Positions 7,575 through 7,637 of a DNA stretch of 64,000 nt are shown piece by piece; within the stretch, counting starts at the first letter, position 1; every line of letters starts with the position of its first letter. Source of the stretch: Escherichia coli (GTDB taxonomy: Bacteria; Pseudomonadota; Gammaproteobacteria; Enterobacterales; Enterobacteriaceae); assembly GCF_003790525.1 (NCBI RefSeq), contig NZ_CP033635.1. One strand, given 5' to 3'. Below the pieces are notes generated by a model, which saw only the letters and a list, made by a program, of their open reading frames with translations, had not been told where the DNA came from and did not search any database. Position numbers and translations under genes: made by a program.

Positions 7575-7637
7575 CTGTTCATATCTGTTCATATTCTGCC
7601 GTAAGCCGTTCATCCTGACCAGTGCCGCTGTTCATAT
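7575..7637 (+). promoter_or_regulatory. torCAD promoter tor boxes (TorR binding sites): four decameric direct repeats
   Basis: CTGTTCATAT at 7575-7584 and 7585-7594, CCGTTCATCC at 7606-7615, CTGTTCATAT at 7628-7637, in the torR-torC divergent intergenic region. Confidence 0.75.

Follow-up and report, generated by a model that had tools for sequence, protein, structure and literature searches.

The tor boxes of the torR–torC intergenic region in an Escherichia coli genome and copy-number variation of their abutting unit

The intergenic region between the divergent genes torR and torC of this E. coli genome contains four decameric repeats at positions 7575–7637 of the window (the whole 64-kb stretch of DNA that was analyzed). 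We conclude, with a probability of about 97%, that these decamers are tor boxes, namely, the operator sites of TorR in the divergent torR–torCAD control region of E. coli. We assign this identity because the array is identical to that of strain K-12, the box sequences are those given in PMC9239176, the flanking genes encode TorR and TorC equivalogs, the boxes are in phase on the DNA helix, and the array is conserved across genera; no observation made here speaks against it. The array is an already known and well-characterized operator, and the original prediction, which was made from the sequence alone, was correct in both its observation and its reading. The region should be annotated as a characterized operator and not as the end of a mobile element, a CRISPR-like repeat, or an iteron. 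The cis-regulatory region for TMAO respiration is intact in this strain.

Direct reading of the sequence placed the four decamers, two of which abut, exactly at the predicted coordinates. The boxes, identified by sequence, position, reference identity, phasing, and conservation, are as follows:

7575–7584, + strand: tor box 1, CTGTTCATAT, the distal half of the TorR high-affinity site (direct reading, exact pattern match, identity to K-12, and sequence in PMC9239176)
7585–7594, + strand: tor box 2, CTGTTCATAT, abutting box 1, with the putative torR transcription start at the box 1/box 2 junction (identity to K-12 and sequence in PMC9239176)
7606–7615, + strand: tor box 3, CCGTTCATCC, matching the consensus at 7 of 10 positions, a low-affinity site according to PMC9239176
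7628–7637, + strand: tor box 4, CTGTTCATAT, the promoter-proximal site (direct reading, exact match, identity to K-12, and sequence in PMC9239176)

The four boxes are direct, not inverted, repeats that all lie on the + strand inside the 129-bp torR–torC intergenic region (7557–7685), and consecutive boxes are separated by spacers of 0, 11, and 12 nt. The period from box 1 to box 2 is 10 bp. Counted from the start of box 1 (0 bp), boxes 2, 3, and 4 begin 10, 31, and 53 bp away, or 0.95, 2.95, and 5.05 helical turns at 10.5 bp per turn. Because the starts are spaced by approximately whole turns, all four boxes lie on one helical face. In an exact search, CTGTTCATAT occurred three times in the 64-kb window, each time in the torR–torC region, whereas dinucleotide-preserving shuffles (n = 100) contained 0.08 copies on average and none of the 100 reached three. 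When up to two mismatches were allowed, no enrichment of CTGTTCATAT was detected across the 64-kb window (59 matches versus 48 expected), and the sequence match of box 3 alone, which has three mismatches, was not statistically distinct from chance in the window. The status of box 3 is therefore based on its in-phase position, its cross-genus conservation, and the literature and not on its own sequence match. In-register units within the spacers were also considered, but a hand count showed agreement with the consensus at only 4 of 10 positions for 7596–7605 and 0 of 10 for 7617–7626, and these units are not boxes.

The decamer TTGCTCATTA at 7638–7647 abuts box 4 and could be thought of as a fifth box that would form a second tandem dimer site and give the array a 2 + 1 + 2 architecture. 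A repeat search aligned 7628–7645 to 7575–7592 at 89% identity, and the pattern GTTCATN4GTTCAT with at most one mismatch occurs in the window only at box 1–box 2 and at box 4 with this 3′ neighbor. Nevertheless, we regard a fifth box as very unlikely. TTGCTCATTA shares only six of its ten positions with the consensus and is weakened further by the common E. coli allele G7640A (found in O157:H7 and also in E. albertii and E. whittamii). Its CTCAT core is not conserved in Salmonella (GCGGAAT), Edwardsiella (AATCAAT), and Providencia (ACTGAAT). In addition, it overlaps the conserved candidate −10 element TAAGAT, and an activator bound there would be expected to block RNA polymerase. We rejected this candidate on account of its lack of conservation outside Escherichia, its polymorphism inside the genus, and its overlap with the candidate −10, and we retain the array of four tor boxes.

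The genes around the array were assigned using NCBIfam models:

3048–5780, − strand: torS, the hybrid sensor kinase that phosphorylates TorR, 910 aa (NF008543, 1894 bits)
5863–6891, + strand: torT, the periplasmic TMAO-binding protein (NF008185, 494 bits)
6864–7556, − strand: torR, the response regulator of the OmpR/PhoB family for which the boxes are the operator, 230 aa (NF008034, TorR equivalog, 428.7 bits versus a cutoff of 275)
7686–8858, + strand: torC, a pentaheme c-type cytochrome, the first gene of the regulated operon, 390 aa (NF011606, 879.9 bits versus a cutoff of 455; also by RefSeq annotation)
8858–11404, + strand: torA, the TMAO reductase (NF011682, 1618 bits)
11401–12000, + strand: torD, the TorA chaperone (NF003442, 263.7 bits)

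Both ORFs that flank the array are thus NCBIfam equivalogs, of TorR and TorC, as expected from the predicted position of the repeats between the two divergent genes, and the scores of torA, torD, torT, and torS were far over the NCBIfam cutoffs. TorR belongs to the OmpR/PhoB family, with a receiver domain joined to a winged-helix output domain: it gave full-length matches to the equivalog models of ArcA, OmpR, CreB, and PhoB with E-values from 1e-64 to 1e-42, and the scores remained under the cutoffs of these families, as a paralogue should give. The original prediction further stated that the TMAO regulon is organized as in the reference. This holds for the gene order (torS< torT> torR< torC> torA> torD>), which is that of K-12 MG1655 and of the RefSeq-annotated, identical locus of strain SMS-3-5, but not for the tail of torS, which is altered by a 1-nt deletion. 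A 451-bp query around the boxes matched SMS-3-5 and related strains at 100% identity and was present in 5416 of 5426 complete genomes, and the first 25 kb of the window showed 100% identity to several E. coli strains.

The deletion in torS lies near 3062/3063, at the 3′ end of this minus-strand gene. TorS consequently ends in …AWLIRKT* (910 aa), compared with …AWLHKKDLNAI* in K-12 (914 aa), and the last 8 residues are replaced by 4. PGAP/RefSeq treats the identical torS of SMS-3-5 as a pseudogene with a frameshift, even though the change is confined to these 8 terminal residues. TorS is 97% identical to K-12 TorS over 909 aa. Because the stretch up to residue 906, in which all TorS domains lie (the C-terminal phosphotransfer region among them), is 97% identical to K-12, TorS with the altered tail may well be functional.

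The tor boxes of the K-12 torCAD promoter were reportedly described by Simon et al. 1995 (Mol Microbiol 17:971) and Ansaldi et al. 2000 (J Bacteriol 182:961), and footprinting and mutagenesis were reportedly carried out on this K-12 region. In an alignment to K-12 MG1655, the present sequence showed no difference from a point inside torR to 34 nt past box 4. The two regions share the same four decamers, the 0-, 11-, and 12-nt spacers, the 129-bp intergenic length, and the flanking genes, with no difference in the array. The intergenic regions differed only by two SNPs, 7672 (T for C) and 7681 (C for T), close to the ribosome-binding site of torC. In the flanking genes, apart from the tail of torS, TorR has P46 in place of S46 and is identical to K-12 TorR at 229 of 230 residues.

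PMC9239176 gives boxes 1, 2, and 4 as 5′-CTGTTCATAT-3′ and box 3 as 5′-CCGTTCATCC-3′, citing Simon et al. 1995; box 3 is described there as a low-affinity site, and an EMSA showed TorR on boxes 1, 2, and 4. The torCAD region of Salmonella enterica in the same study has these sequences in boxes 1, 2, and 4 and in box 3, as here, and TorR binding to it was demonstrated there by EMSA. The comparison with the published torCAD promoter, which had been proposed as a check, revealed no mismatch in any box and, together with the identity to K-12 MG1655, is consistent with the predicted reading of the repeats as the known TorR-binding architecture. S. arizonae and S. diarizonae have the same box layout. 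The sequences of the spacers and flanks differ in Salmonella, and box 3 of S. arizonae is CCGTTCATTC instead of the CCGTTCATCC found in the window.

To extend the comparison beyond E. coli, one genome per species was scanned for the exact 20-mer of box 1–box 2, CTGTTCATATCTGTTCATAT. Since boxes 1 and 2 are fixed by this search, unbiased evidence of conservation is confined to the spacers and to boxes 3 and 4. Fifteen of the 20 matches were located directly upstream of a torC homologue, in 15 species of Escherichia, Salmonella, Edwardsiella, Providencia, and Grimontia (Vibrionaceae). Wherever the contig reached far enough, CTGTTCATATCTGTTCATAT adjoined a divergent torR, except in Grimontia, where tblastn located torR 224 nt away. 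In the 14 aligned species, the GTTCA core of box 3 with its 11-nt spacer from box 2 and the TTCATAT core of box 4 with its 12-nt spacer from box 3 were constant. The stretch from torR to box 1 and the DNA 3′ of box 4 diverged in the same alignment, and across the five genera the identity of TorR decreased to 53% and that of TorC to 49%.

These data bear on the view that the repeats are chance similarities or neutral slippage products in AT-rich intergenic DNA and have no regulatory role, a view to which we assign a negligible probability. Slippage does act on the abutting decamer, of which E. coli has alleles with one, two, three, and four copies, and box 3 taken alone is within chance expectation. 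However, the three exact 10-mers contrast with 0.08 expected, and boxes 3 and 4 are not in tandem, so slippage cannot have made them. Their cores and spacings, moreover, remain constant in the five genera while both proteins and the flanking DNA diverge. Published mutagenesis, footprinting, and EMSA, cited in PMC9239176, also argue against this view, and we consider it effectively refuted by the conservation. Equally implausible is that the boxes mainly serve another DNA-binding system, such as the phosphorothioation proteins of the Dnd type, whose recognition sequence is GTTC/GAAC: DndCDE binds tor boxes 1, 2, and 4 in competition with TorR in Salmonella Cerro 87, but TorR binds more tightly (Kd of 0.97–3.11 μM versus 4.0–6.2 μM for DndCDE), Dnd in that study is a competitor at TorR sites and not an alternative function (PMC9239176), and the conservation of the boxes follows the presence of torR and torC.

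For the function of the tor boxes, the established scheme can be carried over to this identical sequence; TorR binding, the order of affinities, autorepression, and the exact promoter elements in it are taken from the literature or inferred. TMAO is sensed by TorT together with TorS, and TorS then phosphorylates TorR. As a winged-helix protein of the OmpR/PhoB type, TorR is expected to occupy the box 1–box 2 pair with high affinity in both its phosphorylated and its unphosphorylated form, and because this pair would overlie the torR transcription start, TorR would repress its own gene. According to the literature, TorR binds the box 1–2 pair most strongly, followed by box 4 and then box 3. Negative autoregulation and phosphorylation-enhanced binding are supported by secondary citations. 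Phosphorylated TorR would bind cooperatively to boxes 3 and 4, which are weaker sites on that helical face, and occupancy of these two boxes would activate the torCAD promoter, which would possess a −10 but no usable −35 element.

Pho boxes and the F and C boxes of OmpR are tandem direct repeats with a period of approximately 10 to 11 bp, to which winged-helix dimers bind head to tail. The tor array resembles these OmpR/PhoB-family operators in consisting of direct repeats spaced at whole helical turns. The two also have in common a high-affinity upstream site that nucleates binding to weaker promoter-proximal sites and an activated promoter without a −35 element. By contrast, tor boxes 3 and 4 each stand alone, with two turns from one to the next, and do not form abutting pairs, and the high-affinity pair of the tor array would also be the site at which TorR represses its own divergent gene.

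Two candidate promoter elements were deduced from the sequence and its conservation:

7646–7651, + strand: candidate torCAD −10, TAAGAT, proposed on the basis of its conservation
7593–7621, − strand: candidate torR promoter, with a putative −35 TGGTCA (7621→7616), a 17-nt spacer, and a putative −10 CAGAAT (7598→7593)

The heptamer TAAGATC is conserved in every Enterobacterales sequence of the alignment, and the corresponding columns read TACTAT in Grimontia. The position of TAAGAT agrees with a putative torC start about 27 nt upstream of the gene. On the torR side, TGACCAGTG (7616–7624), which lies in the spacer from box 3 to box 4, shows the same degree of conservation as the boxes in Enterobacterales, where torR adjoins the array, but is not conserved in Grimontia, where torR lies 224 nt away, and we infer that it may contain, when read on the minus strand, the torR −35 (TGGTCA). 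The combination TGGTCA–17 nt–CAGAAT agrees with the consensus at 8 of 12 positions, which is under the threshold of the scan, and would put the torR start at approximately 7585–7587, at the box 1/box 2 junction. The boxes would overlap this promoter. The box 1–box 2 pair reportedly covers the torR start, and the candidate minus-strand promoter would fit with this. A consensus promoter and terminator scan of 7450–7750 called nothing, a result that is uninformative for an activator-dependent promoter; the missing torCAD call can be explained by activator dependence and the lack of a −35 element, with which it fits. A GATC (Dam) site at 7649–7652 overlaps the candidate torCAD −10 and was found in 12 of 12 aligned Enterobacterales but was absent in Grimontia.

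Of the 5426 E. coli genomes in the collection, 5415 gave a match to the 73-bp array, and 4410 of these matches showed 100% identity. The variants comprised the common G7640A, a G-to-A change in box 3 of one O169:H41 strain, and changes in the copy number of the abutting decamer. The copy-number alleles were found with synthetic queries and then verified on fetched sequences. The abutting CTGTTCATAT unit is present in two copies in the great majority of complete E. coli genomes, including the window, whereas 12 complete genomes have one copy (O157:H7 PV15-279, O45:H2, O166:H15, and others), 74 have three (the O121 lineage and others), and at least four have four (O26:H11 FWSEC0001 and others). 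The torR–torC intergenic region accordingly measures 119, 129, 139, and 149 bp for one, two, three, and four copies, respectively, and because each step is 10 bp, the helical phase is preserved among these alleles.

We know of no description of copy-number variation of CTGTTCATAT. One tentative reading, to which we would give less than even odds, is heritable tuning of the system by slippage at the high-affinity site of TorR, which could set the autorepression of torR and the inducibility of torCAD separately in each lineage. The one-copy alleles might be natural down-mutants of TMAO respiration. The natural alleles with one to four copies offer ready-made material on how operator copy number relates to TorR autoregulation and induction.

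A comparable arrangement was observed in Providencia vermicola, in which box 2 is followed by a third, degenerate unit, TTATTCACAT, and then by the usual 11-nt spacer and box 3. The array of this species thus has five boxes and parallels the three-copy alleles of E. coli.

Several minor observations were made on related sequences and on the remainder of the window. Five contigs from MAGs with the labels Bacteroidales, Lachnospiraceae, Synergistaceae, and Clostridia also contained the exact 20-mer CTGTTCATATCTGTTCATAT; they had no tor genes nearby, and these matches were taken as unrelated. In one of the five contigs, a third near-copy follows in tandem. For a random 20-mer in 298 Gb, about 0.5 chance matches are expected, compared with these five non-tor matches. 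Inside the torR coding sequence, the 21-nt stretch GTAACCGGTTCATCTTCAACA (7516–7536) resembles the box 3 region (7601–7621) at 76%. We rejected it as a box, and the likeness is probably due to chance because it needs the strain-specific T7524; K-12 and five further strains carry C at this position. Elsewhere in the window, seven matches reached the Rfam gathering score, at 908–1330, 12012–12090, 34961–35154, 36503–36587, 42187–42278, 52372–52414, and 61545–61594. They comprise a cspA-type thermoregulator 5′ UTR, naRNA4 (just 3′ of torD), Ysr251, a tRNA, ES056, ES036, and a PyrC leader, all of which are ordinary for E. coli.
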